From positions 1-54,337 of the IMG/VR virus record IMGVR_UViG_3300045988_066153: a stretch of 54,337 bases of DNA, one strand, 5' to 3'. The first letter of the stretch is position 1. Each line of letters begins with the position of its first letter. The stretch comes from a virus. The notes below the pieces were generated by a model. It saw only the letters and a program-made list of their open reading frames with translations, did no database searches and had not been told where the DNA came from. Shown piece by piece: positions 2,000-49,360 of the stretch. A program made the translations under genes and the position numbers.

Positions 2000-2434
2000 T
2001 TAGATTCTGTATTTCTTGTTTTTCACCAGCCATTTTCTTCGGAAGTAAAGGGCGAAAAGCACGGCGCCAAGCGCAAGCACGAACCATCTCGCCGGGGTAA
2101 GGAGCGTTCCGAATCCGAACAGCTTCTCATATTCAATGCAGGCGTTGACCAATAAATTGTAGCCGCAGAACGCCCGATGAATCCAGCAGAAGCCGAAAGC
2201 CACGGAAAGAACCACCATCAGTGCGAACACGAGCAGCGCGCTCCGCGCTATTACGGAGGCAATCGTCCATACACAGCCGCACAGGAGGCTCGCCGTGTGG
2301 CACATCATCAGTCCTGCACCTATGGGAGGAGAGAACTGTACCATCAGCTTGGCGAGGTGTACGCTCCTATGGATGTGCAGTGTCTCCACAATCTGCTCGT
2401 CCACCATTCTCATTTTATAAAAAAACTTTCTCAT
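2000..2434 (-). CDS. Multi-pass membrane protein
   Basis: Several long hydrophobic segments (LLCGCVWTIASVIA, LLVFALMVVLSVAFGFCWI, WFVLALGAVLFALYF). Same strand and operon as the repressor. Confidence 0.6.
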   Translation of the reverse strand: MRKFFYKMRMVDEQIVETLHIHRSVHLAKLMVQFSPPIGAGLMMCHTASLLCGCVWTIASVIARSALLVFALMVVLSVAFGFCWIHRAFCGYNLLVNACIEYEKLFGFGTLLTPARWFVLALGAVLFALYFRRKWLVKNKKYRI

Positions 2435-2446
2435 AACCGAAAATAT

Positions 2447-3046
2447 TTAGTCTGCATTTCTTTGGATTAAGGAGCGGAGGAACTTGATTTCCTCGTTCTT
2501 CTCCTCGATACTCTTCCTTAGCATCTCATTCTCCTTGGCAATGGCGGAATCCGTCATTGTCTGCGTGTTGTGGTTGGAGCTGTCGCCGATGCTCTGCACA
2601 CGACCTGTCTCCTCCGCTATCTCACGTTCGAGCTGTTCGTCGGGGACGCCACAGCACTCATCGCCTACACCGCGCAGAAGCCATTCTGCGGAAACGTCCT
2701 TAAATTTAAGGAGAAAAGCCTTGATGGTTCCAACAGAAACCCTTGCATCTCCATTCAACTGCCTATTAACAGTCGCTTGCGGTAACCCGACCTCTTTGCT
2801 AAAGGCTGTTACAGACAAGTCATTCTTTTGTAACACCTCTTTAATGCGCTGATTAATATCTTCCGTGCTTACATTCTCCTCCACCCCAGACTGAATAGCC
2901 CGTAAAATTTGGTGTTTAGTAGTCGGAATAGGCTTGCCATACTCCCAATTTTGCACGGTCTTCTCTGACACTCCGACTATCTCAGCGAGCTCCCTCTGCG
3001 TAACACCTAATTTTAGGCGCAAATCTTTTATGTCTAATCCGTTCAT
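2447..3046 (-). CDS. XRE-family HTH repressor (CI-like) with two HTH segments and a C-terminal coiled coil
   Basis: LGVTQRELAEIVGVSEKTVQNWEYG is a classic HTH_3. A second DNA-binding segment is LSVTAFSKEVGLPQATVNRQLNG. The gene is divergent from the early operon. Confidence 0.8.
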   Translation of the reverse strand: MNGLDIKDLRLKLGVTQRELAEIVGVSEKTVQNWEYGKPIPTTKHQILRAIQSGVEENVSTEDINQRIKEVLQKNDLSVTAFSKEVGLPQATVNRQLNGDARVSVGTIKAFLLKFKDVSAEWLLRGVGDECCGVPDEQLEREIAEETGRVQSIGDSSNHNTQTMTDSAIAKENEMLRKSIEEKNEEIKFLRSLIQRNAD

Positions 3047-3097
3047 TGATACCGATGTAACACTTTTTAACTAAGTTGTAAATAACATTTTTGGTGA

Positions 3098-3121
3098 AAT
3101 ATTTGGTGCACACCCAATATT
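3098..3121. promoter_or_regulatory. Candidate operator: 11-bp inverted repeat (10/11 match) abutting the early promoter
   Basis: AATATTTGGTG-ca-CACCCAATATT lies immediately upstream of the -7 box at 3126. Confidence 0.45.
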
Positions 3122-3125
3122 CGGT

Positions 3126-3133
3126 TATCTTTG
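3126..3133 (+). promoter_or_regulatory. Bacteroides-type -7 box (TATCTTTG), early rightward promoter
   Basis: TAnnTTTG match in the divergent intergenic region between the repressor and the first early gene. Confidence 0.5.
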
Positions 3134-3207
3134 CATTGTGTTTAGGGCGAATTTAATGCCAAACACAAAACAACGGTGCAAAAGTACTAATAATAAACAA
3201 CATAACA

Positions 3208-3408
3208 ATGAAAATTATAAAAAAAATCAACGTAACAGAAACTTTGAAAGCTCTACAGGTGGGCGAAGAGATGGTTTTCCCTTATAGGCAGACTTCCTCC
3301 AGCACCGTGCGTGCGGCAGCCTACGCCATCAATGTCCGGGGCGAAGCGAAGTATAAGGTGTGGCAAGTGAACCACGAGTTGGCAACACACGCAATCAGAT
3401 TGAAATGA
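3208..3408 (+). CDS. Hypothetical early protein
   Basis: First ORF of the plus-strand early operon. Its stop overlaps the next start (ATGA). Confidence 0.55.
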   Translation: MKIIKKINVTETLKALQVGEEMVFPYRQTSSSTVRAAAYAINVRGEAKYKVWQVNHELATHAIRLK

Positions 3409-3686
3409 ACGAGGAACTATTGGAAATGCTCCGACCATTCGCCAAAATGGTCGCTGAAGAACTGGTTAAGGTAATGCCACAGCCAGCCACTCCGAGCGAA
3501 CAGTACAGCGGCATTGACGGCATAGCCGCCATATTTAAATGCGGTCGCACAAAGGCGCAGGCAATGAAGAACTCCGGCGTGCTTGACTCCGCAATAACAA
3601 TCACAGGCAAAAAATTCATTGTCGACAAGCAAAAAGCACTGGCGGCGATGCAAGCAAAAAATAGAAAATTCCATAAATACAACTAA
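3405..3686 (+). CDS. Putative MerR/excisionase-like HTH DNA-binding protein
   Basis: ATG 3405 overlaps the previous stop. The segment IDGIAAIFKCGRTKAQAMKNSGVLDSAITITGKKFIVDKQKAL resembles the HTH_17/excisionase layout (HTH, then a 'kIG.r..f.k.dl' wing). Confidence 0.45.
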   Translation: MNEELLEMLRPFAKMVAEELVKVMPQPATPSEQYSGIDGIAAIFKCGRTKAQAMKNSGVLDSAITITGKKFIVDKQKALAAMQAKNRKFHKYN

Positions 3687-3687
3687 A

Positions 3688-4044
3688 ATGCAAACAGAAC
3701 TGACACAAGTCCGACTGAGCGAAGCGCAAATCGCGCAAATCGCAAAAGAGTTCAAAAAAGAGGTCGACGAGAACTATTCGGACGCTTTCACCCATCCCTA
3801 CGAAAAATGGGAGTTTTGGACAGAGATAGATGGTTTAGCCATCTCCGTATTCTACAATATGTGGGCAGAGAACAAGCGTTACCACGCGGAGAACTACACA
3901 GAGCCGGAGTATGGAGAGGACGCCTATGGAATCAGCATCGTTGACATTACCGCCTGCGATGGTGAGTTGGGCGACGTGGAGATAGAGAATGAAGGTGACT
4001 TGGACGAAGCCATCAACGGATATACCAACACTTATGAATGGTAA
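3688..4044 (+). CDS. Hypothetical protein (acidic)
   Basis: ATG 3688 lies 2 nt after the previous stop. Tightly packed in the operon. Confidence 0.55.
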   Translation: MQTELTQVRLSEAQIAQIAKEFKKEVDENYSDAFTHPYEKWEFWTEIDGLAISVFYNMWAENKRYHAENYTEPEYGEDAYGISIVDITACDGELGDVEIENEGDLDEAINGYTNTYEW

Positions 4045-4523
4045 TCGCTATGGAAGAAGATGTAAGAAGCATATACCGCCCTGCTATATGGGCGAAGCGG
4101 CTCGAAGCCTACAAAGCCGCAGAAGCGGCTCTCAGAGAGAGCGCACCGAAAGTGAGAGAAGCAGACGAGGCTGCCGCAAAAGCCTTGATTGAATGGGCGG
4201 ACGAGTATGAGGAGAATATTAGAATCCTCGAAAGCCGCAAGCCGATAGGGATTTTATGGTCGTACTTTGTCTTTGCCGCCACCCAATGCATAGACGCAAT
4301 AGCCTGCGAGCAGGGCAACTACACCGAAGTATCAACCACAGTCTACGGTGAGGACAGAAAACCCTACACTCTAAACGTAGAATGCAACTGGTATCAATAC
4401 AGAGGTTGGGAAATATCCCCAATGGTGATAGACGAGTTTCGGCAAGAGCATCTCCTCGGTGATGCTGAGAAGTTCTGCGAGGCTGTCGGATTCGAGTGTT
4501 CCGACGCAGACGACTACGAGTAA
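4038..4523 (+). CDS. Hypothetical protein
   Basis: 161-aa ORF overlapping the previous stop. Confidence 0.55.
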   Translation: MVIAMEEDVRSIYRPAIWAKRLEAYKAAEAALRESAPKVREADEAAAKALIEWADEYEENIRILESRKPIGILWSYFVFAATQCIDAIACEQGNYTEVSTTVYGEDRKPYTLNVECNWYQYRGWEISPMVIDEFRQEHLLGDAEKFCEAVGFECSDADDYE

Positions 4524-4529
4524 GACACA

Positions 4530-4572
4530 AGGCAGTATGGTACACGGATGGGTTCAATTCCCATCCTGCCTA
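4530..4572 (+). ncRNA. tRNA-like minihelix (T-arm plus short acceptor-like stem)
   Basis: GGATGGG-TTCAATT-CCCATCC (4546-4566) is flanked by AGGCA 4530-4534 / TGCCT 4567-4571. There is no D or anticodon arm. Confidence 0.35.
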
Positions 4573-4796
4573 CAAAGAGTACATTGACGTATTGACAACA
4601 AGCATAACGACCGCAACGAGTCGCACACAATAAGCATTCCAGCCGAGTGTGTGAGTTGGCGTTGCGGATGTGGTCAGCACCGACTATGCAACAGGTGCTG
4701 GGGCTACGCGGCGAGCCTATGACGCCGCAGTGTATACAACCAACCAACGAGCAGCACTCCTTACAGAGCAATTGACTGCTCACTCTATATATTCCG

Positions 4797-4912
4797 AGCG
4801 GTGGCAAGGTGCCGAGGGGAGGTTCGATTCCTCCTCGTGACTGCCGTCAAATCATTGGCGGTCTCATTAGAGACTTGGTGTCGCAGGGGAGGTTCGATTC
4901 CTCCCACCGCTC
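4797..4912 (+). ncRNA. Non-canonical tRNA-like module 1 (116 nt, two identical T-arm hairpins)
   Basis: Acceptor pairing AGCGGTG 4797-4803 / CACCGCT 4905-4911. T-arm GGAGG-TTCGATT-CCTCC at 4888-4904. An exact 20-nt copy AGGGGAGGTTCGATTCCTCC occurs at 4815-4834 and 4885-4904. I could not fold an anticodon arm. Confidence 0.45.
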
Positions 4913-4984
4913 CTATTCCCTTTATTAAAGCAACTTTTACTCATAATTTTTCCCTCCGAACCCGTGAGGGCGCAGGAGGTACAA

Positions 4985-5095
4985 GGCAGAGCGCGGTGGT
5001 TCCGCATTTCCCATTTAGTAGAGTATGATTGAGTTTAGTAATTGAGTTTAGTTGATAATTGTTTTTCACAGGGGGTTCGATTCCCCCCTCTGCCA
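4985..5095 (+). ncRNA. Non-canonical tRNA-like module 2 (111 nt)
   Basis: Perfect 7-bp acceptor GGCAGAG 4985-4991 / CTCTGCC 5088-5094. T-arm GGGGG-TTCGATT-CCCCC at 5071-5087. D-arm-like GCGG-TGGTT-CCGC. The centre is a 65-nt AT-rich insert with ATTGAGTTTAGT duplicated at 5028-5039 and 5041-5052. Confidence 0.5.
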
Positions 5096-5160
5096 CTTAC
5101 ATTCTTTTTAACGATTGAGATTTCATCGCCTCTCCGTCCGTGAGGATATGGGAGGCATCA

Positions 5161-5252
5161 CGGCTCGCACTGGTAGGCTTCGGTCGGTAATTATTAACAA
5201 CTTCTTATCCAATTCTCTACGACCGGGGCGAGGTTCGATACCTCCGAGCCGA
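5161..5252 (+). ncRNA. Non-canonical tRNA-like module 3 (92 nt)
   Basis: Perfect 7-bp acceptor CGGCTCG 5161-5167 / CGAGCCG 5245-5251. T-arm GAGG-TTCGATA-CCTC at 5230-5244. A central stem CGGTCG 5181-5186 / CGACCG 5220-5225 closes a 33-nt AT-rich loop. Confidence 0.45.
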
Positions 5253-5350
5253 CTACTACTTTCGTATCATTTATTGACAACGTTTTTTTCGGGAGGCGGT
5301 CTGTGAGGATAGTCTCCTTTTTATCAGACAATTATAAAAAAACAAAATAT

Positions 5351-5533
5351 ATGAAGAAACTAATCATCTACCTGCTGATGACCGTGTGGATGGGAGTCAG
5401 CATCGTCCTCCTATGCAACGAGGACGAGAGTGCGGCACTATTGCCGTTCACTCTCATCAAGGCTGGGGCGTTGGCATCGTTCCTCGCCTCCCTGAAAATC
5501 TTATGTATGCTAACAGACAGAAAACTTATATAG
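5351..5533 (+). CDS. Small membrane protein
   Basis: MKKLIIYLLMTVWMGVSIVLLC... has two hydrophobic helices. ATG 5351 is in frame within the 5303..5533 ORF. Confidence 0.5.
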   Translation: MKKLIIYLLMTVWMGVSIVLLCNEDESAALLPFTLIKAGALASFLASLKILCMLTDRKLI

Positions 5534-5535
5534 AT

Positions 5536-6156
5536 ATGGCAGACAAGACATTCACCGAGCGTGTGATTGCTGTGCAATCACAACTCAAAGCACCGAAGAA
5601 TCAACGGAACAACTTCGGCGGCTACAATTACCGCAACTGCGAGGACATCCTCGAGGCGGTCAAGCCTCTCCTCAAAGCCGAGGGGCTATTTCTAACCATC
5701 ACCGATGATATCGTGGTGCTTGGTGACAGATTTTACGTCAAGGCAACCGCAACGCTGACTGACGGAGAACGGTCGCTATCCAACCAGGCTTTCGCCCGTG
5801 AGGAAGCGACAAAAAAAGGAATGGACGGCAGCCAAGTGACGGGTGCCGCATCCTCCTATGCACGAAAATACGCGCTCAACGGCTTGCTTGCTATCGACGA
5901 CACAAAGGATGCCGACACTTTGAACAACGGCAAGGAGTACACGGCAACCTCGAAGGGCTCAGGCAAGGCAAAGGCGACTGCTCCAGCACCCGCTATTCCT
6001 GCTCCTGACAAGGCGGCAGTAATAGCGGCGGTGTATGCCGCACAGACCGAGGAGGAAGTCGTTGCGATATATAAGAAGAACTCTTATTACTTCGGCAAGG
6101 ACGAAGCGGTAATCACCGCTTGTTCCCAAAGAAAACAACAACTAAAACAAGGCTAA
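5536..6156 (+). CDS. erf: ERF-family single-strand annealing protein
   Basis: NFGGYNYRNCEDILEAVKPLLKAEGL ... FYVKATATL ... KKGMDGSQVTGAASSYARKYALNGLLAIDDTKDAD matches the ERF family core. ATG 5536 is in frame within the 5386..6156 ORF. Confidence 0.85.
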   Translation: MADKTFTERVIAVQSQLKAPKNQRNNFGGYNYRNCEDILEAVKPLLKAEGLFLTITDDIVVLGDRFYVKATATLTDGERSLSNQAFAREEATKKGMDGSQVTGAASSYARKYALNGLLAIDDTKDADTLNNGKEYTATSKGSGKAKATAPAPAIPAPDKAAVIAAVYAAQTEEEVVAIYKKNSYYFGKDEAVITACSQRKQQLKQG

Positions 6157-6157
6157 T

Positions 6158-7054
6158 ATGTTGAGATATTCTGAAATTGTATTTGACCCCGTCGGGCATA
6201 CCTATACCGCGCCCGACGGGAGGGCGTTGCAGGGCATCACTGGGATGCTCCAACGGCAATTGTTTCCCGATGAATATGCCGGGGTTGACGAAGAGACGCT
6301 GAAGGCCGCAGCCGAGCGTGGCAGTGCAATCCACGCACAAGTGGAGTTCTGCGACGACTTCGGCACTACTTTCGAGGATATTCCAGAAGTGGTCAATTAC
6401 CAACGGCTAATCAAGGAGGGCGGCTACGTTCCGTGTGAATCCGAGTACGTTGTCAGCGACAACGAGCACTTTGCGTCTCCTATTGACAAGGTGTTCAAAG
6501 TCTCCGAAACGGAGTATATCCTCGGCGACATCAAGACCGTGCGTAATCTCAACGAGGACAAGGTACGTTGGCAACTGTCCATCTACGCCACATTCTTCGA
6601 GCGGCAGAACCCAGGCTGTAAGGTTGTCGGTCTGCTTGCCATCTGGCTTCGTGGGAACAAGGCTAAAATAACGGAGGTACAGCGCATTCCTGACAGCGTG
6701 ATTGACGCTCTCCTCGCCGCCGAGGTGGAAGGTCGGCAATTCGTCAACCCACTCCCGAGCGTCAACACTCTACCCGACCGCTACAAGGCGATGGAGATGC
6801 AGATTCTTGACCTGCTCGCAAAGAAGAAAGAGATAGAGGAGCAGGTGAAGACGTTCTCCGAGAGAATGAAGGGCGAGATGGAGAAGGCTGGAGTGAAGAA
6901 GTGGGAAACCGACAATATGCGGCTTACCTACATTGAGCCTTCCACCAAAGAAACATTCGACGCCAAGAGGTTCAAAGAGGAACATCCTGAAGACTATAGA
7001 GAGTACATCAAGACAACAAAAGTAAAACCATCAATAAGAATCACAGCATTATGA
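6158..7054 (+). CDS. PD-(D/E)XK (RecB/Cas4-like) exonuclease
   Basis: GSAIH, SEYVV, ILGDIKT (D-x-K) and QLSIY (QxxxY) motifs in the canonical order. It sits directly after the annealase gene. Confidence 0.75.
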   Translation: MLRYSEIVFDPVGHTYTAPDGRALQGITGMLQRQLFPDEYAGVDEETLKAAAERGSAIHAQVEFCDDFGTTFEDIPEVVNYQRLIKEGGYVPCESEYVVSDNEHFASPIDKVFKVSETEYILGDIKTVRNLNEDKVRWQLSIYATFFERQNPGCKVVGLLAIWLRGNKAKITEVQRIPDSVIDALLAAEVEGRQFVNPLPSVNTLPDRYKAMEMQILDLLAKKKEIEEQVKTFSERMKGEMEKAGVKKWETDNMRLTYIEPSTKETFDAKRFKEEHPEDYREYIKTTKVKPSIRITAL

Positions 7055-11496: not shown

Positions 11497-11975
11497 AGAT
11501 AACGAAGATTAGGGAGGTGAAGACTCCCACAAGAGGGACTGAATGCTCGGCAGGGCTGGACTTCTACGTGCCGAAAGGCTTCACGGCTCGGTTGACATCG
11601 GGGACTGACATCCTCGTGCCGAGCGGTATAAGGGCGGAAGTGCCGCACGGCTACGCGCTGATTGCGATGAACCGCTCCAGCGTGGCGACATCCACAGACG
11701 CTATGCGGCGTGTCGGTCTGACGCTAAAGGCAAACACCCCCAAAGGAACGCTCGTTGTCGGAGCGTGCGTGGTGGACGAGGACTATCAAGGCGAGATTTA
11801 TATACATCTCATCAATGTCGGCAGGAGCATAGAAGTAATTCATCCAGGGATGAAGGTGGCGCAGTTCGTGCTTACCCCTGTGAGTTATGAGGGTGTCGAG
11901 GTTGTGGATGAGGAAGAGTTGTTCAACCAAGCGACCGAGCGCGGAAAAGGCGGTTTCGGAAGCACCAACAAATAA
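11493..11975 (+). CDS. dut: dUTP diphosphatase
   Basis: AGLDFYVP, VVDEDYQGEI and C-terminal RGKGGFGST motifs. Confidence 0.9.
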   Translation: MKITKIREVKTPTRGTECSAGLDFYVPKGFTARLTSGTDILVPSGIRAEVPHGYALIAMNRSSVATSTDAMRRVGLTLKANTPKGTLVVGACVVDEDYQGEIYIHLINVGRSIEVIHPGMKVAQFVLTPVSYEGVEVVDEEELFNQATERGKGGFGSTNK

Positions 11976-11979
11976 CGAT

Positions 11980-13215
11980 ATGTACGAAGCGAGTGAATAC
12001 ACACCAGACTATGGCGCACGGGAACGCGCTTTGCAACTGCTCGCGGATGTAAAGAAACGTGAGGAGGGGAGCAAGATCGTGCGACTTGACAAGCGCACAC
12101 TGGTTGTCCGCAACGAGAAGCGGATGGACGAGGATTTACGGAAGGAAACCGAAAAGAAGCCACGCAAAAAAACGGTGGTCGTCACGACAAACAGACATAA
12201 GCCCTCCGTTTGTGCAGAGCAAGATACGAGAAAGCCCAACCGCACGAAAGCGAAGCCTATAAGGGCTAAGATTTCAATGGAGGCTATTATGCAGAAAACA
12301 GGCACAATTCAACGAAAAAAGGTTGGAATAACGTTCATAGATTTCTGCGCCGCCGAGATTGCGGAATTGCGCCGAATGGGTGAAAACACGACCGCGGAAC
12401 GCTATGAGAAGATTTTGCGTATCAACCGCGATCTATTTGAGGGTATCGACATCGGTCTGCTTGACTATACGCATATTCTGGCTGCGCAGGAAGCAATGGT
12501 ACATAGAGGTTTGTCTGCTAACTCAATCGGTATGTATAACCGCAATTTGCGGACGATGTACAACAGGGCGGTGGCACGGGGAATTGTAGAGGACGCTTCT
12601 CCGTGGAAGCGAGCGACAACGGCAGTTGCGAAAACGAAGTCACGGGCATTGTCAGACACGCAGTTCAAGGCGTTGCTCGCAATCAATATGGACGAATTTT
12701 ATAAATGGGGAGGGGTGGAAAAGGACACCACGCGCAAAGGGTATAAACAAGCATACGATTTGTTTATTCTCAGCTTTCTGCTCCGCGGTATATCTCCAGC
12801 AGACCTTGCAAGCCTTACTCCTTCCAATTTTCGTAACGGCAATATGACATACGCAAGAAAAAAGACACATCAAGTGCTTTCCATGAAGGTGCCAGAAAAG
12901 GCAAAGAAAATCATACGAAAGTATAAGGCTGATGGGGGTCGCAGCTTGCTGGGCGTGTCTTTAAGCCGCATACGACAACTTAATTCGTTCCTCTCAAAAA
13001 TCGGTGAATACATAGGTTTCTCCGAACCGCTGACATTCTACTGCGCACGGCACACTTGGGCAAGCCTCTCCAACGCTGCGGAGGTACCGTTGACGGTCAT
13101 AAGCAAAGGAATGGGTCATACGGACATCAAGACAACGCAGATTTACCTTGCGTCAATTCAAACGGACGTGGTTGACAGGTATTCCGAAAAACTATACACA
13201 AAATACGGATTATAA
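11980..13215 (+). CDS. Second tyrosine recombinase/integrase
   Basis: FLLRGISPADL (Arg I), CARHTWAS (HxxR) and GMGHTDIKTTQIYL (H, Y). ATG 11980 is in frame within the 11887..13215 ORF, 5 nt after the dut stop. Confidence 0.85.
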   Translation: MYEASEYTPDYGARERALQLLADVKKREEGSKIVRLDKRTLVVRNEKRMDEDLRKETEKKPRKKTVVVTTNRHKPSVCAEQDTRKPNRTKAKPIRAKISMEAIMQKTGTIQRKKVGITFIDFCAAEIAELRRMGENTTAERYEKILRINRDLFEGIDIGLLDYTHILAAQEAMVHRGLSANSIGMYNRNLRTMYNRAVARGIVEDASPWKRATTAVAKTKSRALSDTQFKALLAINMDEFYKWGGVEKDTTRKGYKQAYDLFILSFLLRGISPADLASLTPSNFRNGNMTYARKKTHQVLSMKVPEKAKKIIRKYKADGGRSLLGVSLSRIRQLNSFLSKIGEYIGFSEPLTFYCARHTWASLSNAAEVPLTVISKGMGHTDIKTTQIYLASIQTDVVDRYSEKLYTKYGL

Positions 13216-13228
13216 AAAAAATAAAATT

Positions 13229-13471
13229 ATGGGACTATGCAGTTTAGTAGCGACACCTGTCGCGGAAGAAAGCTCTATGGTGACAATCACGCTCTCAAAG
13301 GAGGATTACCGCGCAATCACAGCACTGATTGACAAGGAACTGAAAATGTATGAGTCGCAGTTGCCGCATTTTGCGAGCAAGCTGATACTTGTGAAGGCTC
13401 TGACAAGATGCCTAAAAAAGACGGAAGCAGTCAGAGGTCTGAGGGAGAGATGGATAAACAATAAGCGATAA
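13229..13471 (+). CDS. Hypothetical protein
   Basis: ATG 13229 is in frame within the 13148..13471 ORF. Confidence 0.45.
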   Translation: MGLCSLVATPVAEESSMVTITLSKEDYRAITALIDKELKMYESQLPHFASKLILVKALTRCLKKTEAVRGLRERWINNKR

Positions 13472-13491: not shown

Positions 13492-13713
13492 ATGAATGTT
13501 TTAGAACAAAGACAGGCAGAGGCGGTGGTGAGCATCGCCAAGACATTGCGCACTCCAGACTGGGAGCAGCGCAGGTATGAGATAGCAAAGGATATATTAC
13601 CGCACACGATTCTTCTTGAATATTACGGCAAGGGTCTCGAGCGCGGTGTAAAAGATGCAGTCATGATCGCTGACGCTCTAATCGCTGAACTGAAGAAAGG
13701 AGGCGAGAAATAA
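13492..13713 (+). CDS. Hypothetical protein
   Basis: 73-aa ORF. It ends in KKGGEK and shares a 17-nt identical 3' end with the next gene. Confidence 0.5.
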   Translation: MNVLEQRQAEAVVSIAKTLRTPDWEQRRYEIAKDILPHTILLEYYGKGLERGVKDAVMIADALIAELKKGGEK

Positions 13714-13746
13714 AGTTTATTTAACTCTAATAAAAACTAAAAGACA

Positions 13747-14061
13747 ATGAAAGAAGCAGAAAAAATCATCAACGGTAGTAAATATTGGCTTAATGAAGAC
13801 CAGAAGAATCGTACAGCAGTGGTAATCTTGGCAAATAATAAAGAGGACGAGATGTGGGCTCATGCTGCGGGGACATCATACGCTATAGCGCGTCTCATCT
13901 ATTTGATGATGCTCAAAGACAAAGGACTCGGTCACAACATATATGTGGCTGCTTGCCTCTATGCTCACAACCATATTGCAGCAAAAGAGCGTGACAAGAT
14001 AGATGCCTTTATATCCGCTGACGCTGAAGCGAGCAAAAAATCGAAAGGAGGCGAGAAATGA
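13747..14061 (+). CDS. Hypothetical protein
   Basis: 104-aa ORF ending in KSKGGEK. Confidence 0.5.
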   Translation: MKEAEKIINGSKYWLNEDQKNRTAVVILANNKEDEMWAHAAGTSYAIARLIYLMMLKDKGLGHNIYVAACLYAHNHIAAKERDKIDAFISADAEASKKSKGGEK

Positions 14062-14835: not shown

Positions 14836-15048
14836 ATGATAAAGCAATACAGGATGTGGCTCCTCCGCCAGCAGAGGCGGAGGGCGCAGAAGCGAAATGA
14901 GGAAGTGTGCGCAAGCCTGTCCGTCAGACTTATTGACGGATCGTTGTACATTGCAAATGGCTGCACGCTTATCCACAAGTTTTCAACCGACAATTCAGTC
15001 GGCGAAGTTGTTAATAAAATTAACGAGATAAGGAGAATGAATCTATGA
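14836..15048 (+). CDS. Hypothetical protein
   Basis: The track ORF starts at GTG 14827. The first ATG is at 14836. Confidence 0.4.
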   Translation: MIKQYRMWLLRQQRRRAQKRNEEVCASLSVRLIDGSLYIANGCTLIHKFSTDNSVGEVVNKINEIRRMNL

Positions 15049-18875: not shown

Positions 18876-20126
18876 ATGAAGAAAACAAGTTTTGGCGTAC
18901 CTTATAAAGGTAGCAAGAATAAGATTGCGGAAAGTCTGATAGGACGACTTCCGTCTGCATCAAATTTTGTAGACCTTTTTTGCGGAGGGTGTGCGATGAC
19001 GCATGCCGCCCTTCTCAGTGGCAAGTGGAAGAACATCTATGCCAACGACCTTGACGGACGCGGTCTGCGTCTTTTCCTCAGCGCCGCCAACGGCGCATAC
19101 AAGGATGAAGTTCGGTGGATTAGTCGCGAAGATTTCTTCAGACTGAAAGAAACCGACCCATACATCGCGGTGTGTTGGAGTTTCGGAAACAACTTTTGTA
19201 ATTATCTGTACTCGAAAGAAATCGAGCCGTGGAAACGGGCATTGCATTGGGCGCGCGTGTACAACGACCTTTCTGTCTTCAGAGCGATGGGGGTCAATAC
19301 CGATGGCACAAGAACCGACATCATTGCACACAAAGACGAGTACAAAGCCGCCTATATCAGATGGTATCTTGCGCAACGCGGCGACCGGATGCCATTACAG
19401 TATGTGATGACGCGAATCAAGGAACAGATAAAGCTGACGAGTGACGAGCTGAGGCAGTATCTCTGTGATGCCTTAAAAGAGAGTGGACTGTCACAGGCAG
19501 AGGTAGATCGCCGGTTGGGGAACAATATGGCTAGCCACTATTTCGGCTATTCGCAGTGGCAATTTCCAACCGAAGAAAACTACAACAAGATGCGCGAATG
19601 GATGCCGCTGAAGCCACATGCGGAGGTCTATGCGTTGCAGAAACTGAATTGCTGCCTTGACAACCTTCAGAGCCTTGACAAACTTCAGAGCCTTGACAAA
19701 CTTCAGAGCCTTGACAACCTTCAGAGCCTTGACAACCTTCAGATGCTAAACCGCATTAATTCACTGATGGAGTTCCGTGACCGAATCAACACAATCAAAC
19801 CGACCTATAAAGACTACAGAGAAGTCCGAATCCCCGAAAACAGCGTGGTTTATTGCGACATTCCTTATCGTGGCACCGATGGATATCTGTCAGGCTTCAA
19901 CCACAATGAGTTCTATGAGTGGGCAAAACAGCAAACGGAACTTGTGGTAATATCCGAATACTCTATGCCTGAAGGCTTCTGCGAGGTGTTCGGAAGACTG
20001 CACATTTCTTCTTTGTCAGCAACATCCCACCACCACGTCACGGAAAAATTGTTTGTTCCCGAACATCAAGTGGGGGAATATTACAGACGCCTTGAACCTG
20101 TAGATTTGTTCAACTACGAGAAATAG
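18876..20126 (+). CDS. Dam-like DNA adenine methyltransferase with HTH insert and hexapeptide repeat
   Basis: YKGSKNKIAE...FVDLFCGGCAM (motif I region) and VVYCDIPYRGT (DPPY-type motif IV). The central LSQAEVDRRLGNNMASHYFG is HTH-like. LD(N/K)LQS is repeated five times. Confidence 0.8.
   Translation: MKKTSFGVPYKGSKNKIAESLIGRLPSASNFVDLFCGGCAMTHAALLSGKWKNIYANDLDGRGLRLFLSAANGAYKDEVRWISREDFFRLKETDPYIAVCWSFGNNFCNYLYSKEIEPWKRALHWARVYNDLSVFRAMGVNTDGTRTDIIAHKDEYKAAYIRWYLAQRGDRMPLQYVMTRIKEQIKLTSDELRQYLCDALKESGLSQAEVDRRLGNNMASHYFGYSQWQFPTEENYNKMREWMPLKPHAEVYALQKLNCCLDNLQSLDKLQSLDKLQSLDNLQSLDNLQMLNRINSLMEFRDRINTIKPTYKDYREVRIPENSVVYCDIPYRGTDGYLSGFNHNEFYEWAKQQTELVVISEYSMPEGFCEVFGRLHISSLSATSHHHVTEKLFVPEHQVGEYYRRLEPVDLFNYEK
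19656..19745 (+). repeat. 5 x 18-bp in-frame tandem repeat inside the Dam-like methyltransferase
   Basis: CTTGACAA(C/A)CTTCAGAGC units start at 19656, 19674, 19692, 19710 and 19728. They encode LDNLQS-LDKLQS-LDKLQS-LDNLQS-LDNLQM. Confidence 0.9.
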
Positions 20127-46517: not shown

Positions 46518-48812
46518 TTAGTGAGTGAATAATTTGCTGTTGTCCTTAGGCTGCATTATACGTCCGAGCAATTCGCCCAAGACAAAGTAGCGGGAGGCGT
46601 CGATGCAGTGGTTGTCGTGGTCTTCCGGCTCGTTAACATATCTTCCGTCAATATCTCTCGCCCAGATATAGTTGCGCAGCTCGTTCTGCAGGTTGTAGGA
46701 ACGCTCAGTGACGAACAATTCCATATCCTTCATCTTCTCAATGCCGGCAATGATGGAACCTGAACCTTTGGCGACAGGATAGATGCGGATGCCGCCGTTG
46801 TGTATCTCCTGTATAAGCCTGGGGTCGGCGGAGTCGGCGATGACCTTCAGCCCCCAGGGGCGAAGAGCCTTGATGATGTCGGAGGAAAGCATTCCAGTCC
46901 TGTAGTCTATCTCGTCAATATACAAAGCGTTGTCCACGACACCGCAGCGGACAATGGCGGTAGGGTCATGGGAATAGCCGAAATCCAAGCCAATGGCGAC
47001 ACGCTTCGCCCATTTGGGGAACTCTTTGACGACACCCCACTTCTTGAATACGGCACCCTCGTTGACATCCGCCCATCTGCCTATGACGGTATGGGCATAT
47101 TTCTCGGGGTTGTCTTTCTTAATCTGCGAAACCTCATTGATGAACTGCGGCGACAGATTGTCGATGTTGTCAAAATATGTGGTGTGGATGTGGAGAACGT
47201 TCGGATGCGTGCTTATCTGCACCGGCACCCCGTCAAACTCCACAAGCTTGTGCGTCTTCTCTATGTACTTGCGGTAAATGAAATGGTTGGAATCCGTAGG
47301 GTTCATTATGATAATGATACGGTTCTGTATGCCTTTCTGACGGATGGATAGCATTATCCGGTCGAAGTCCTGCTCGCTCGTCCATTCCTCCGCCTCGTCA
47401 CAGACAAACGTGGTGATGCCGTGGATTGACTTCAGTTTCGCCGTCTGATTGCCCGAGGAAGTCTTGATGCCACGGAACATTATACGGCTTCCGGTCATTC
47501 TGTTTATCACATCCGTCCGTGTGGAATGGAAATATTTCTCCGTCCCGTCAAGTTCAATCTTCTCCAGCATCTCCGGAATGATGGAGATGTGAGCCGACAC
47601 CATCGTATAGCGAGTATAGAGGATTTGGTGCGTGATGTGTTCTTCAGGAGTAAGCTCAAAAGTGAGCCGGCTGATGAATGCGGCGGTGTTGAAGCTTTTC
47701 CCCGAATTATGCGTGACAGTGCCGTCGCTGTGGAGGTAACGTTGATTGCCGTCGAGACAGATGCCGCACCAATCCCCGACACCGGCAGGCTCGATGCTCA
47801 ACATTGACAAATGCCAATCTTTGTTTTTGCGCACGTCCTCTTTGCGTATCTTTTTCCGCTCTACCTTGCAAGGAATACGCCATACGTCCCCATTGATGGA
47901 CACCCGATAAACCTTGCCGCAGTCTTTCCCATTGCATCGTGCGGACTTCTCGGTTATGTTTGTTCTGAAACCAAGCGTATCGGCGACATATTTGATTTGC
48001 TTTGCAAGGGTGCGGTTCTTTTGGATAATTTCATAGCCGTTCCCGCTTGCATAGCCATCAGTATCAAGCAGACCGGCAAGCAATTCCAATCTGTTGTGTT
48101 CGCTGTTGGATATGTATTCTTGTGGGATGTGCTTGTTGTCAATAAGATTGTATTGGCGGAAAACATCCATTATGGGATTTGTATGCCCTTCGGTTTTTGC
48201 AAGTCTGAATGTTCTCGCCTTCCCCTTGACCCCATTAAGGGAAAGCCTTAATCCCTTTTCTTCCGCATAAGATTGTAAATACCCAACAATCTCACTGTCC
48301 GGTGTTGTTATCTGGGGGAAAATACTTGTCCCATCCCCGAGCCATAACCCAAGCAGATACGGGGGTAGCGGAACGGGGACTTCCGGATAAGGGATGGATG
48401 GCGACTTGTAACCACGGAATTGCTCTCGGAATCTTTTGCTCTTGGACGCATAATCTGTCACCCGGATGTCTGTATACTCTGGATATTCCCTATACCGTCC
48501 TTCTCTTATTGCCGCACTGCTTTTCTTCACGCTGAGAATATGCGCATCGTTGACAAAATAGTCCTCGGCACTTGACTGGTGGACTCGGAACATATCACTG
48601 CGCCCTGACATTGTTGCAAGAACCTTCCTCGGGGTGCCGTCGTCGCCCATAACGAACTCGCCGACGGAAATATCCTTGATTTGCTTGACGGTCAAGTCGG
48701 ACATAATGACTTCTTGCGACGGGGATTCACACCCGCGCCCTCCCGTCACAAGGATGATGAATTTCTCCTTGTCCTCATACATCGGATAGTACACAGGCTG
48801 CGGAACAATCAT
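46518..48812 (-). CDS. terL: Terminase large subunit, interrupted by an intein
   Basis: The exteins join to give Walker A LVTGGRG|SGKSF. Downstream are FVCDEAEEW (Walker B-like) and a C-terminal RNase H-like nuclease region. ATG 48812 overlaps the terS stop (ATGA); the track starts at TTG 48836. Confidence 0.9.
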   Translation of the reverse strand: MIVPQPVYYPMYEDKEKFIILVTGGRGCESPSQEVIMSDLTVKQIKDISVGEFVMGDDGTPRKVLATMSGRSDMFRVHQSSAEDYFVNDAHILSVKKSSAAIREGRYREYPEYTDIRVTDYASKSKRFREQFRGYKSPSIPYPEVPVPLPPYLLGLWLGDGTSIFPQITTPDSEIVGYLQSYAEEKGLRLSLNGVKGKARTFRLAKTEGHTNPIMDVFRQYNLIDNKHIPQEYISNSEHNRLELLAGLLDTDGYASGNGYEIIQKNRTLAKQIKYVADTLGFRTNITEKSARCNGKDCGKVYRVSINGDVWRIPCKVERKKIRKEDVRKNKDWHLSMLSIEPAGVGDWCGICLDGNQRYLHSDGTVTHNSGKSFNTAAFISRLTFELTPEEHITHQILYTRYTMVSAHISIIPEMLEKIELDGTEKYFHSTRTDVINRMTGSRIMFRGIKTSSGNQTAKLKSIHGITTFVCDEAEEWTSEQDFDRIMLSIRQKGIQNRIIIIMNPTDSNHFIYRKYIEKTHKLVEFDGVPVQISTHPNVLHIHTTYFDNIDNLSPQFINEVSQIKKDNPEKYAHTVIGRWADVNEGAVFKKWGVVKEFPKWAKRVAIGLDFGYSHDPTAIVRCGVVDNALYIDEIDYRTGMLSSDIIKALRPWGLKVIADSADPRLIQEIHNGGIRIYPVAKGSGSIIAGIEKMKDMELFVTERSYNLQNELRNYIWARDIDGRYVNEPEDHDNHCIDASRYFVLGELLGRIMQPKDNSKLFTH
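47706..48731 (-). mobile_element. Intein (342 aa) with LAGLIDADG homing endonuclease, inserted in the TerL P-loop
   Basis: Begins with Cys (CESPSQEVIM...VGEFVMGDDGTPRKV; block B NDAHIL). Two LAGLIDADG motifs: LLGLWLGDGTS and LLAGLLDTDGYA. Ends GTVTHN, followed by the +1 Ser. Confidence 0.85.
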
Positions 48813-49360
48813 TTGCCGACCTCCTTCTTTATCCAAGCGTCAATATCAACACCCCTGTCGACATTGGTCGGAACGTCGGAAGCATCCTCGTCCTGTCTGC
48901 GCTCGGTCTTTCTCCATTCTGAATCGTGGTGGTACAGCCAGGTTGCAAGCGCCTGCATATTGTAAGGCATCTCGGATTCTGTTTCGGAAGTCTGAATCTC
49001 CTCGTCTTCCGTGTATTCCCCACCTATGCGCAGTTTGCGGCGGAGAACCGTCTTCGATTTGATTTTCTTGCCACCGAGGGCACCTTTAAGGTATGCGCCG
49101 CGGACTATGGAAGTGATTTTTCTGCGTCCACGCGCTAAGACCTTATTAAAACGAGCGGAGCGCCTTTGGTTTTCCTTCTCTGTCCAATTCGCATAGCAAC
49201 CGTTCTTCATTGTGGAAAACACATCCGGGGACAAAGACACGCCGAATTTGTCGGCAAGGCTGTCGGCGATTTCAGCGTCCGTCAATCCCTGCATGGCGAG
49301 GGCGAGGATTTCATCGTAGAAATCATCGGAATCGTAATCGAATTTCTTTGGTCTTGCCAT
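48809..49360 (-). CDS. terS: Terminase small subunit
   Basis: N-terminal HTH (MQGLTDAEIADSLADKFGVS) and a basic centre. It lies directly upstream of and overlapping terL. Confidence 0.7.
   Translation of the reverse strand: MARPKKFDYDSDDFYDEILALAMQGLTDAEIADSLADKFGVSLSPDVFSTMKNGCYANWTEKENQRRSARFNKVLARGRRKITSIVRGAYLKGALGGKKIKSKTVLRRKLRIGGEYTEDEEIQTSETESEMPYNMQALATWLYHHDSEWRKTERRQDEDASDVPTNVDRGVDIDAWIKKEVGK

Follow-up and report, generated by a model that had tools for sequence, protein, structure and literature searches.

The non-coding stretch of 827 nucleotides (nt) that runs from the stop codon of the open reading frame (ORF) at 4038-4523 to the ATG at 5351 in IMG/VR virus record IMGVR_UViG_3300045988_066153 is an array of transfer RNA (tRNA)-like modules; the window referred to throughout is positions 1 to 54,337 of that record, 54,337 nt in all. 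The evidence supports four such modules, each possessing an acceptor stem and a T arm and none able to decode. The favoured interpretation, held tentatively and with a probability of roughly 0.45, is that the stretch is the non-coding part of an early rightward transcript, organised as a tRNA-punctuated small-RNA operon. In its support, the modules conserve the features required for tRNA-end processing but lack anticodon arms, and it is favoured because hairpins stand shortly before modules, the 3' trailers are hypervariable and similar cassettes lie between ORFs elsewhere. The array consists of the following features.

4530..4571, + strand: module 0, a tRNA top-half minihelix of 42 nt (fold z = -3.15)
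4572..4795, + strand: GC-rich core RNA of 224 nt (minimum free energy fold)
4796..4912, + strand: module 1 (fold z = -5.22)
4913..4951, + strand: spacer 1, AU-rich, which is the 3' trailer of module 1 and would also form the 5' part of a putative spacer-plus-hairpin RNA of 72 nt (alignment)
4952..4979, + strand: hairpin 1, outer stem CCUCC/GGAGG and inner CCC-GUGA-GGG, ending 5 nt before module 2 (fold)
4985..5095, + strand: module 2 (fold)
5096..5127, + strand: spacer 2, an AU-rich variable trailer with at least five alleles, insertions among them
5128..5156, + strand: hairpin 2, outer stem GCCUCUC/GGGAGGC and apex C-GUCC-GUGA-GGAU-AU, ending 4 nt before module 3 (fold)
5161..5252, + strand: module 3 (fold z = -3.42)
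5253..5290, + strand: spacer 3, with UUAUUGACAAC at 5271-5281 (sequence and repeats)
5291..5324, + strand: hairpin 3 (the hairpin itself 5291-5318), apex GUCU-GUGA-GGAU, followed by UUUUUAU (fold)

Four modules without an anticodon arm

A strict search for T arms on both strands of the whole 54-kb window (a stem of 5 base pairs (bp) closing a TTCRANN loop) returned only four matches, at 4548, 4818, 4888 and 5071, all of them on the plus strand and inside the stretch, with none on the minus strand. In a repeat search the T arm appears as a four-copy family of 20 nt with spacings of 70, 183 and 158 nt. A fifth T arm, GAGG-TTCGATA-CCTC at 5230-5244, has a stem of 4 bp, so that all five T-arm signatures listed in an earlier reading of the sequence by itself (hereafter the sequence-only reading) stand. 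The three acceptor pairings proposed there are likewise exact, namely 4985-4991/5088-5094, 5161-5167/5245-5251 and 4797-4803/4905-4911, the last of which extends to 8 bp (4796-4803/4905-4912). We calculate that, for each module, a 7-mer with perfect Watson-Crick pairing would arise by chance in the roughly 110 nt upstream with a probability of about 0.007. The acceptors of modules 1-3 are 7-8 bp long and acceptor plus T stem amount to 11-13 bp in total, as in the expected acceptor/T-arm stack, which the modules adopt when folded singly (z of -2.5 to -5.2 versus shuffles). Where a tRNA would have its anticodon arm, none of the four shows the standard 5-bp stem and 7-nt loop; the centres are either empty or filled by an insert of 70 nt, by a 65-nt AU-rich repeat, or by a stem of 10 bp that carries a loop of 33 nt. 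Their acceptor sequences are all different and none equals that of any called phage tRNA.

Module 0 begins 7 nt past the stop codon of ORF 4038-4523 and consists of a 5-bp acceptor-like stem (4530-4534/4567-4571) on a 7-bp T stem (4546-4552/4560-4566), a tRNA-like stack of 12 bp with the loop UUCAAUU and an 11-nt bulge containing GG. This confirms the minihelix first noticed at 4530, and its T loop varies only at positions that are variable in tRNAs too. In module 1 the 8-bp acceptor is accompanied by a T arm at 4888-4904 and by a mini D-like hairpin, GGCA-AGG-UGCC (4803-4813). In the window it also contains a 70-nt insert (4835-4904 in register) with a second, identical T arm at 4818-4834 and two small hairpins; the insert is flanked by a 20-nt direct repeat, AGGGGAGGTTCGATTCCTCC, which is an exact duplication of the T arm. 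In most related loci module 1 occurs in an insert-free short form of 48 nt, the insert being present in 6 of the first 16 loci.

Module 2 combines its 7-bp acceptor with a D arm, GCGG-UGGUU-CCGC (4993-5005), a T arm at 5071-5087 and the discriminator base A5095. Its acceptor and D arm are invariant among related loci, and its AU-rich centre of 65 nt contains a tandem 13-nt unit (5027-5052) that is found in one to three copies depending on the locus. Module 3 has a 7-bp acceptor, the single-stranded segment CACUGGUAG, a 4-bp T stem (5230-5233/5241-5244) and the discriminator A5252, and at its centre a stem of 10 bp (5177-5186/5220-5229) closes a loop of 33 nt (5187-5219), in which AAUUAUUAACAA is conserved. 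The D-loop mimics of modules 0 and 3 are single-stranded and contain GG. The sequence-only reading, which could fold neither a D arm nor an anticodon arm, was therefore right about the latter and not about the former, given the canonical D arm of module 2 and the D-like hairpin of module 1.

The 224-nt core between modules 0 and 1 includes UAUUGACAAC at 4590-4599 and is predicted to form helices at 4611-4618/4660-4667 (enclosing 4621-4628/4647-4654), 4670-4707, 4708-4713/4723-4728 and approximately 4749-4780; because its sequence is almost invariant, this structure depends on prediction. A 15-nt segment of the core, TATTGACAACAAGCA (4590-4604), is identical to a stretch of the terminase coding strand at 48130-48144, an equally long match being obtained in 9 of 300 shuffles. 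A related decamer, TATTGACAAC / TATTAACAAC, occurs in three copies in the array (4590, 5192 and 5272).

The loop of module 3 has a perfect 14-nt complement, GAAGTTGTTAATAA, at 15004-15017 on the plus strand, about 30 nt upstream of the ATG at 15046. Shuffled loops equalled it in 3 of 300 cases, and the site is kept in nine related contigs with no co-variation, remaining unchanged where the loop has a 1-nt deletion (locus L005); it is thus a marginal candidate target of the loop. Antisense complements of the spacers, the module 2 centre and the module 1 insert within the window were at chance level, and motif searches for TTATTRACAAC and ATTGAGTTTAGT were unconvincing.

Standard detectors pass over the array. 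At default thresholds ARAGORN reports no tRNA or transfer-messenger RNA (tmRNA) gene in the window, whether or not its intron and tmRNA modes are switched on, and no Rfam model reaches its gathering score anywhere in the window. A permissive Rfam scan (E<=10, 4400-5450) yields bare 17-nt T-arm fragments of tmRNA models only and no tRNA match. At normal thresholds neither program finds a cloverleaf, as had been anticipated, and the tmRNA mode of ARAGORN bears out the earlier remark that no tag frame is to be seen.

It is highly improbable that the modules are unusual true tRNAs, with introns, expanded loops or possibly a suppressor function, or functionless tRNA fragments of a decaying or attP type. 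With introns allowed and thresholds of 95% and 80%, ARAGORN does call a 'tRNA-Stop(tta)' in module 2 and a 'tRNA-Glu(ctc)' in module 3, and an element of this kind in Bacteroides phage BS-TP2, the closest cultured relative of the window phage (portal identity 59%), is a near-perfect cloverleaf whose counterpart in locus L067 attains the Rfam tRNA gathering score. However, these calls are obtained only with inserts at the non-canonical positions 26/27 and 27/28, a mismatched anticodon stem or U37; L050 has lost the putative CUC anticodon, which the divergent lineage described below also lacks; and module 0 and the short form of module 1 are without any arm. Relics would not be expected to show 95-99% conservation with compensatory changes. 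Fragments of the attP type are 3' halves adjoining an integrase gene, whereas here both halves pair and the integrase gene is some 3 kb from the array, on the far side of the repressor gene; with both acceptor halves present and covarying, the attP/tRNA-fragment reading is ruled out.

Conservation and rearrangement among relatives

Relatives were retrieved through the upstream protein of 161 amino acids (aa) and comprise 15 IMG/VR and 30 human-gut metagenome contigs with 53-99% amino-acid identity. In all of these roughly 45 contigs the non-coding stretch follows the upstream ORF and is nearly invariant. The 224-nt core is the most conserved part of the neighbourhood (median nucleotide identity to the window 98.7%, minimum 95%, 43 loci), followed by modules 0, 2 and 3 (medians of 95-96% over 40-45 loci; module 0, 95%, 45 loci), and the upstream ORF has a median nucleotide identity of 89.9% in only the 23 loci where it can still be aligned. 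No homologue of the core was found among 120 other phage loci, and the GenBank phage collection gave no nucleotide match to the stretch. The sequence-only reading had called this the largest ORF-free gap of the genome; spurious ORFs of 42-97 aa with GTG or TTG starts do in fact cover it, and none of them is conserved. Because open frames differ among loci and loops carry 1-nt indels, the stretch is non-coding and a protein-coding reading is ruled out, homologues having no conserved frame.

Variation is concentrated in the AU-rich spacers behind the modules, these 3' trailers being the only hypervariable parts. Spacer 1 has at least five non-homologous alleles among related loci, and its flanking structures are conserved. 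Searches of the spacers against phage records and against the window gave chance-level matches only. Presence/absence variants include a 15-nt hairpin after module 0 and the 70-nt insert of module 1. In locus L048 (metagenome contig ERZ1034917.257) the array is 1191 nt long and has two extra modules, which arose by a duplication jointed in a T arm; this duplication yields a hybrid module whose acceptor has its 5' strand from module 3 and its 3' strand from module 1. Loci L005 and L013 show a fusion deletion that is reciprocal in kind. Since the joints of array rearrangements are located in T arms, these arms appear to be recombination hot spots.

Compensatory changes accompany this conservation. 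In a divergent lineage (L038, L041, L055, L058) a U-A pair of the module 3 acceptor has become A-U and the central stem GCUUCGGUCG/CGACCGGGGC has become GGCGGACGG/CCGUUUGUC, with the loop motif retained. Counted over an alignment of 22 sequences, the module 3 structure has 98.9% of cells paired and five pairs changed on both sides, a score that was reached by 0 of 500 shuffles and approached by no slid register. The T stem of module 2 shows two compensatory pair changes (GGGGG/CCCCC to GCAGG/CCUGC or the reverse) in several loci. The inner stem of hairpin 1 covaries between CCC/GGG and UCC/GGA, the tetraloops alternate between GUGA and GCGA (in hairpin 2, and in hairpin 3 of L006 and L012), and hairpin 3 exchanges G·U for G-C pairs in L006 and L012. 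Because several helices depend on G·U pairs, a plus-strand RNA rather than a DNA structure is indicated, and the comparison supports formation of the acceptor, T, central and hairpin helices in such an RNA. The acceptor stems of modules 0-2 are almost invariant, and therefore their support comes from conservation and from the wider class of elements described below. Conservation and covariation place these features far beyond chance.

It is very improbable that the whole 0.8 kb is one large ornate RNA of the GOLLD or ROOL kind, in which T loops and GNRA loops would serve as tertiary contacts. The fold of the whole region is more stable than that of shuffles (z = -4.72), conservation is extreme, and several GNRA loops and T loops are present. 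No large-RNA family was found in the Rfam scans, however, at gathering scores or at E<=10; membership of GOLLD or ROOL, which had been suggested from the sequence, fails accordingly, neither family being among the E<=10 matches and the modular copy-number and indel variation contrasting with one fixed fold. Modules are gained, lost, duplicated and recombined between close relatives (the 70-nt insert, the 15-nt hairpin, L048, L005, L013), the spacers are non-homologous alleles, and the cassette is found singly in other phages.

Conserved boxes had also been noted from the sequence, each assigned to the module before it. The boxes are real and are the GUGA hairpins, but they belong to the module that follows, ending 4-5 nt upstream of it. 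The GUGA hairpins are about 60% similar to each other. A CRISPR array was considered and rejected: the repeats are T arms and these ~60%-similar hairpins only, their spacing is irregular, and near-identical repeats of 24-48 nt are missing.

Hairpin-plus-tRNA-mimic cassettes in other phages

The apex of hairpin 2 contains a 15-mer, CCGTCCGTGAGGATA, that is widespread: an IMG/VR scan found it at no fewer than 120 loci. The loci compared here are BS-TP2 (L061, PQ571275.1) and L062-L181 from IMG/VR, nearly all gathered by means of this 15-mer. In nearly all matches listed it forms the apex of a hairpin with a differing outer stem. The apex itself is invariant (a C·A mismatch, a G·U pair and UCC-GUGA-GGA) and the outer stems covary in at least 25 versions; a set of 22 distinct hairpins, chosen by a filter requiring 6 or more of the 7 pairs, shows covariation at every one of the seven outer pairs, with no fewer than four pair types at each, and before that filter a contiguous stem of at least 6 bp is present in 36 of 51 distinct flanks among the matches listed. 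Genomes have one to three copies, either with a U tract (about half of the hairpins among the matches listed) or directly before a tRNA-like element. The motif matches no Rfam family and no paper containing its sequence was found.

In at least 59 instances (at least 17 distinct elements) on unrelated viral contigs, an element with a complete acceptor stem and T arm begins 4-10 nt behind the hairpin, and most of the hairpin-linked elements among the matches listed receive no ARAGORN call. At the anticodon position these elements have nothing (L106, 63 nt), loops of 5, 6, 16 or 33 nt, or inserts of 50-100 nt, free variation that is as expected if only the top half of the tRNA is needed. A simple detector applied to about 1.1 Mb (L061-L181) found 110 elements with T arm and acceptor, against 4 in shuffled sequence; 57 of the 110 overlap ARAGORN tRNA calls and 53 do not. 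The cassettes typically lie between ORFs of the replication and recombination modules.

Two examples, which share the layout of the window and are unrelated to it in sequence, illustrate the range. In BS-TP2 the hairpin (13691-13721; GGUGUGC-CGUCC-GUGA-GGAUA-GUGCACC plus U tract) precedes, by 10 nt, an 83-nt element (13732-13814) that ARAGORN calls tRNA-Arg(gcg) and that is a perfect cloverleaf but for a 16-nt loop on the anticodon stem; in sister contigs the same element is called 'tRNA-???' with a 4-base anticodon. A second BS-TP2 element of 108 nt (19550-19657) has a class-II D arm and reaches the Rfam tRNA gathering score with no ARAGORN call, and neither element is annotated in the GenBank features for 1-30000 of PQ571275.1. 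Locus L106, the sequence of which is unrelated to the window, repeats the whole layout upstream of its own erf gene, in the order ORF, about 330 nt of GC-rich ORF-free sequence, tRNA-like element, AU-rich spacer, GUGA hairpin, 6 nt and anticodon-less tRNA-like element; the mascRNA model gives a weak match (E = 0.53) to the last of these. The window array thus appears to belong to a wider class of elements, so far unannotated, in phages of gut Bacteroidota. Neither topic-based literature searches nor those with the hairpin sequence turned up a description of such elements, and unspecified candidates termed 'tRNA or tRNA-like' are mentioned in one catalogue of structured RNAs from viruses (PMC10690425).

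Other tRNA-like shapes were observed in the same loci. A 78-nt hairpin-linked element of the L063 type, GGGCGGU...ACCGUCCA (L063, L064, L066, L070, L117), carries a 15-nt loop on a 4-bp stem where the anticodon arm would be, together with G3·U70 and A73, the alanine identity set that tmRNA uses as well. In L066, L075 and L166 there are 68-nt tRNA-like genes with a 5-nt 'anticodon' loop (UAACA), called tRNA-???(ac) by ARAGORN and adjoining genuine tRNA-Met(CAT) and tRNA-Arg(CCT) genes; by their sequence they seem to be another non-decoding tRNA shape in the same phage group. The Rfam DUF2693-FD RNA (75 bits) is likewise found in the early region of BS-TP2-type phages, about 0.9 kb upstream of the cassette, at L061 12753-12801 and L067 5097-5145, and no copy was found in the window.

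Genomic setting and probable transcription

The window genome is that of a temperate, siphovirus-like phage, in which family scans identify integrase, cI-like repressor, Erf, RecE-like exonuclease, NinB, DnaB, portal, terminase and tape-measure protein. The promoter type, the integrase domain and the nearest phage, BS-TP2, are the sole grounds on which a Bacteroides-type host is proposed; an exact 29-mer of the core and a protein-based search gave no match in GTDB genomes. The array is situated after small early ORFs and before the recombination genes, downstream of one further feature.

3102..3133, + strand: candidate Bacteroides-type promoter (TTTG-N20-TATCTTTG) of the early rightward operon (consensus only)

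This candidate lies between the divergent cI-like repressor gene (2447-3046, minus strand) and the first early ORF and contains the sole TAnnTTTG on the plus strand within 2400-6200. Because it stands upstream and no further TAnnTTTG follows up to 6200, the array is placed within the early rightward operon, and from this we infer that it is transcribed. Within the array there is no TAnnTTTG, one 7/8 match being present (TAATTTTT at 4944), and a scan of the stretch for sigma-70-type promoters gave background level only. At its end, hairpin 3 is followed by UUUUUAU 27 nt before the ATG at 5351, a U tract that is invariant in relatives. By eye this is a terminator-like array end, although a simple consensus terminator scan did not list it.

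This arrangement raises the alternative that the stretch acts in cis as a regulatory leader where the immediate-early genes give way to the delayed-early ones. Hairpin 3 and its U tract would then be an attenuator or terminator ahead of the recombination and replication genes, read-through would be controlled by the binding of RNA polymerase, or of a phage or host factor, to the apex and core, and the tRNA-like modules would be structural accessories. The proximity of hairpin 3 to the next ORF favours such a leader, as do the recurrence of the same apex with U tracts at many sites in other phages (1-3 per genome) and the combination of an invariant apex with freely varying outer stems, which is typical of a hairpin recognised by a protein. 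Moreover, since no TAnnTTTG follows up to 6200, Erf, the exonuclease and later genes need read-through. The leader is nevertheless improbable, as it explains neither the complete acceptor/T-arm mimicry nor the U-tract-less hairpins that precede tRNA-like elements, no antiterminator candidate was found among the ORFs scanned, and hairpin 3 was missed by the terminator scan.

Among the window ORFs scanned there is no RNA-processing enzyme, and no Ro60 (TROVE) match was obtained among about 40 of them scanned against Pfam or PHROGs. The 60-aa ORF that starts at the ATG at 5351 is upstream of erf, and a 60-aa predicted membrane protein is encoded directly beside tRNA-like elements in both the window (5351-5533, plus strand) and BS-TP2 (13080-13262). 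In Erf (5536-6156, plus strand) the first 128 residues are 67% identical to Erf of Salmonella phage P22, which is unusually high across phages of different bacterial phyla. In addition to the integrase gene at 272-1534, a second tyrosine integrase (Phage_int_SAM_5 and Phage_integrase) is encoded at 11887-13215 (plus strand) in the middle of the plus-strand gene block, adjoining a dUTPase gene, and could be a sign of a nested or captured element. An intein interrupts the gene of the terminase large subunit (46518-48836, minus strand); its Hint and LAGLIDADG homing-endonuclease domains are flanked by those of the terminase.

Relation to known tRNA-like RNAs

The element is in no known family and is a new form of tRNA-like processing element or tRNA mimic. 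Its closest parallels are the t-elements of plant mitochondria and the mascRNA-type structures of MALAT1/MEN-beta, tRNA-like folds within longer transcripts whose ends are made by RNase P and RNase Z (PMC4919922). The likeness consists of an acceptor stem and T arm with no functional anticodon arm, a mimic that stands at RNA junctions here as it does there and that in those systems is released as a small tRNA-shaped RNA. Those systems are eukaryotic or organellar, whereas the array is phage-encoded, tandem, associated with GUGA hairpins and in part provided with large conserved cargo; it has no sequence homology to them and no Rfam match in the window. The CI RNA of phage P4 is a phage regulatory RNA of the same kind as C4 of P1/P7, and both differ from the array modules, which have T arms, in being without a canonical T arm or D loop. 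The C4 antisense RNA is cut from an early/immunity transcript by host RNase P by virtue of tRNA-like features (Hartmann et al. 1995, cited in PMC4919922). It acts through loops complementary to sites in the phage's own messenger RNA. Models of the C4 family had no match at gathering scores or at E<=10.

The tRNA-like domain of tmRNA resembles module 3 in its acceptor and T arm, its D-loop without a D stem and the long helix that replaces the anticodon arm. The array differs in having no pseudoknots, no tag frame (none with ARAGORN -m) and no G3·U70, and in the small size of its modules (42-117 nt). Stable RNA species 1 and 2 of phage T4 are co-transcribed with tRNAs and released by tRNA-processing enzymes; they lie in a cluster of true tRNAs, whereas the window is without a true tRNA. 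In engineered tRNA-guide RNA arrays and tRNA scaffolds, RNAs are excised by RNase P and RNase Z or stabilised at the anticodon position; these are artificial, and no description of a natural phage counterpart was found. YrlA, in some cases phage-encoded, contains a tRNA-like domain without an anticodon that is a substrate of tRNA enzymes, and in Mycobacterium smegmatis it is cleaved by RNase P and has CCA added (PMC4201824). It shares with the array the character of a non-coding RNA with T arm, D arm and acceptor-like stem and no anticodon. In YrlA, however, the T and D arms flank a closed acceptor-like stem-loop and the termini form the Ro60-binding stem (PMC4201824), whereas the 5' and 3' ends of the array modules pair as an acceptor stem, as in a normal tRNA. 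YrlA genes adjoin a Ro60 (TROVE) gene, and no YrlA Rfam match was found in the window.

Proposed processing and function

RNase P, RNase Z, the CCA-adding enzyme and T-loop-modifying enzymes recognise the tRNA features retained in the modules. Punctuation by RNase P and RNase Z, one of the roles listed in the sequence-only reading, fits the anatomy best (hairpins, hypervariable trailers, inter-ORF cassettes), and from this anatomy we infer the following cleavage steps and roles of the mature RNAs. The stacked acceptor and T stems, the T loop and the GG-containing D-loop or D arm would keep the signals for these enzymes, while the decoding arm would be dispensable and become a free 'cargo slot'. 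A cut by RNase P at the 5' side of each module would leave the upstream RNA ending in a stable GUGA hairpin plus 4-5 nt, a protected 3' end made without transcription termination; where the hairpin has a U tract elsewhere, the same end would be reached by termination. RNase Z would cut behind the discriminator base. This would release the structured core RNA (224 nt), four stable RNAs of tRNA shape that measure about 42-117 nt, with conserved cargo on two of them (the 33-nt loop with AAUUAUUAACAA and the repeated 13-nt unit), and three RNAs of about 65-72 nt with a variable AU-rich 5' region and a conserved 3' hairpin. Processing by RNase P is reported for phage regulatory RNAs, and processing by RNase P with RNase Z for tRNA-like structures inside longer transcripts (PMC4919922); the favoured analogy is thus that the array may function like t-elements, mascRNA and the RNase P-processed C4 RNA of phages.

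Several observations weigh against this punctuation model. Three consecutive modules have no ORF between them, and pure punctuation leaves their number unexplained; the near-invariance of the stretch and the loop motif of module 3 go beyond the needs of a processing signal; and the sequence-invariant apex of the hairpins is not accounted for. Together with the invariant core and the conserved loop of module 3, the ORF-less run of modules suggests that the RNAs so released would have functions of their own. Acceptor halves are mismatched in some recombinant loci (L005, L013, L048), which implies that perfect modules are not always required. Furthermore, bacterial RNase P prefers U at position -1, where the array has A or C.

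An alternative use of the same mature RNAs is as decoys, a role also listed in the sequence-only reading. With an acceptor stem, a T arm and a CCA end but no anticodon, they would act as sponges for host factors that attack or sense tRNA ends, and their early, multi-copy expression would shield the real tRNA pool; this is considered rather unlikely. Such factors might be nucleases that cleave tRNA tails, for example Cas12a3, or other toxins with a reported action on tRNA 3' ends, and phage countermeasures to tRNA-tail cleavage are stated to be unknown (PMC12851939). The presence of several modules in tandem in an early operon, the differing copy number between loci and the abundance of non-decoding tRNA-like elements in L061-L181, about equal to that of called tRNAs (53 vs 57), are consistent with this role. 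However, no link to any defence system was found in the data examined, and decoys leave unexplained the conserved cargo (the module 3 loop and the 224-nt core) and the conserved hairpin. CCA is not encoded at the 3' ends (A-C-U-A and similar), so that the same processing is presupposed, and the four different acceptor sequences match no called phage tRNA. The more general proposal of a widespread class of early, multi-copy, anticodon-less tRNA mimics that soak up tRNA-end nucleases or toxins such as Cas12a3 is judged doubtful and slightly less probable still; a related idea is that these mimics may naturally serve as 'tRNA scaffolds' for the display of regulatory loops.

Significance

Should the decoy reading hold, it would represent the first phage countermeasure to tRNA-tail cleavage, and it makes such a phage answer directly testable. 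If instead the punctuation model is true, temperate Bacteroides phages let host tRNA enzymes carve an early transcript into stable small RNAs. Carving by tRNA shape is known from mitochondria, a few eukaryotic long non-coding RNAs and synthetic guide-RNA arrays, and no description from phages was found. Because, in the loci compared here, tRNA finders and Rfam miss most of these elements and report a few as tRNAs, tRNA counts and annotations for phages of this group are distorted, the ARAGORN call of 'tRNA-Arg' in BS-TP2 being an example of a mimic reported as a tRNA. The hairpin apex, the invariant 224-nt core and the conserved loops provide handles for new RNA-protein and RNA-RNA interactions in an important group of gut bacteria that is genetically difficult.

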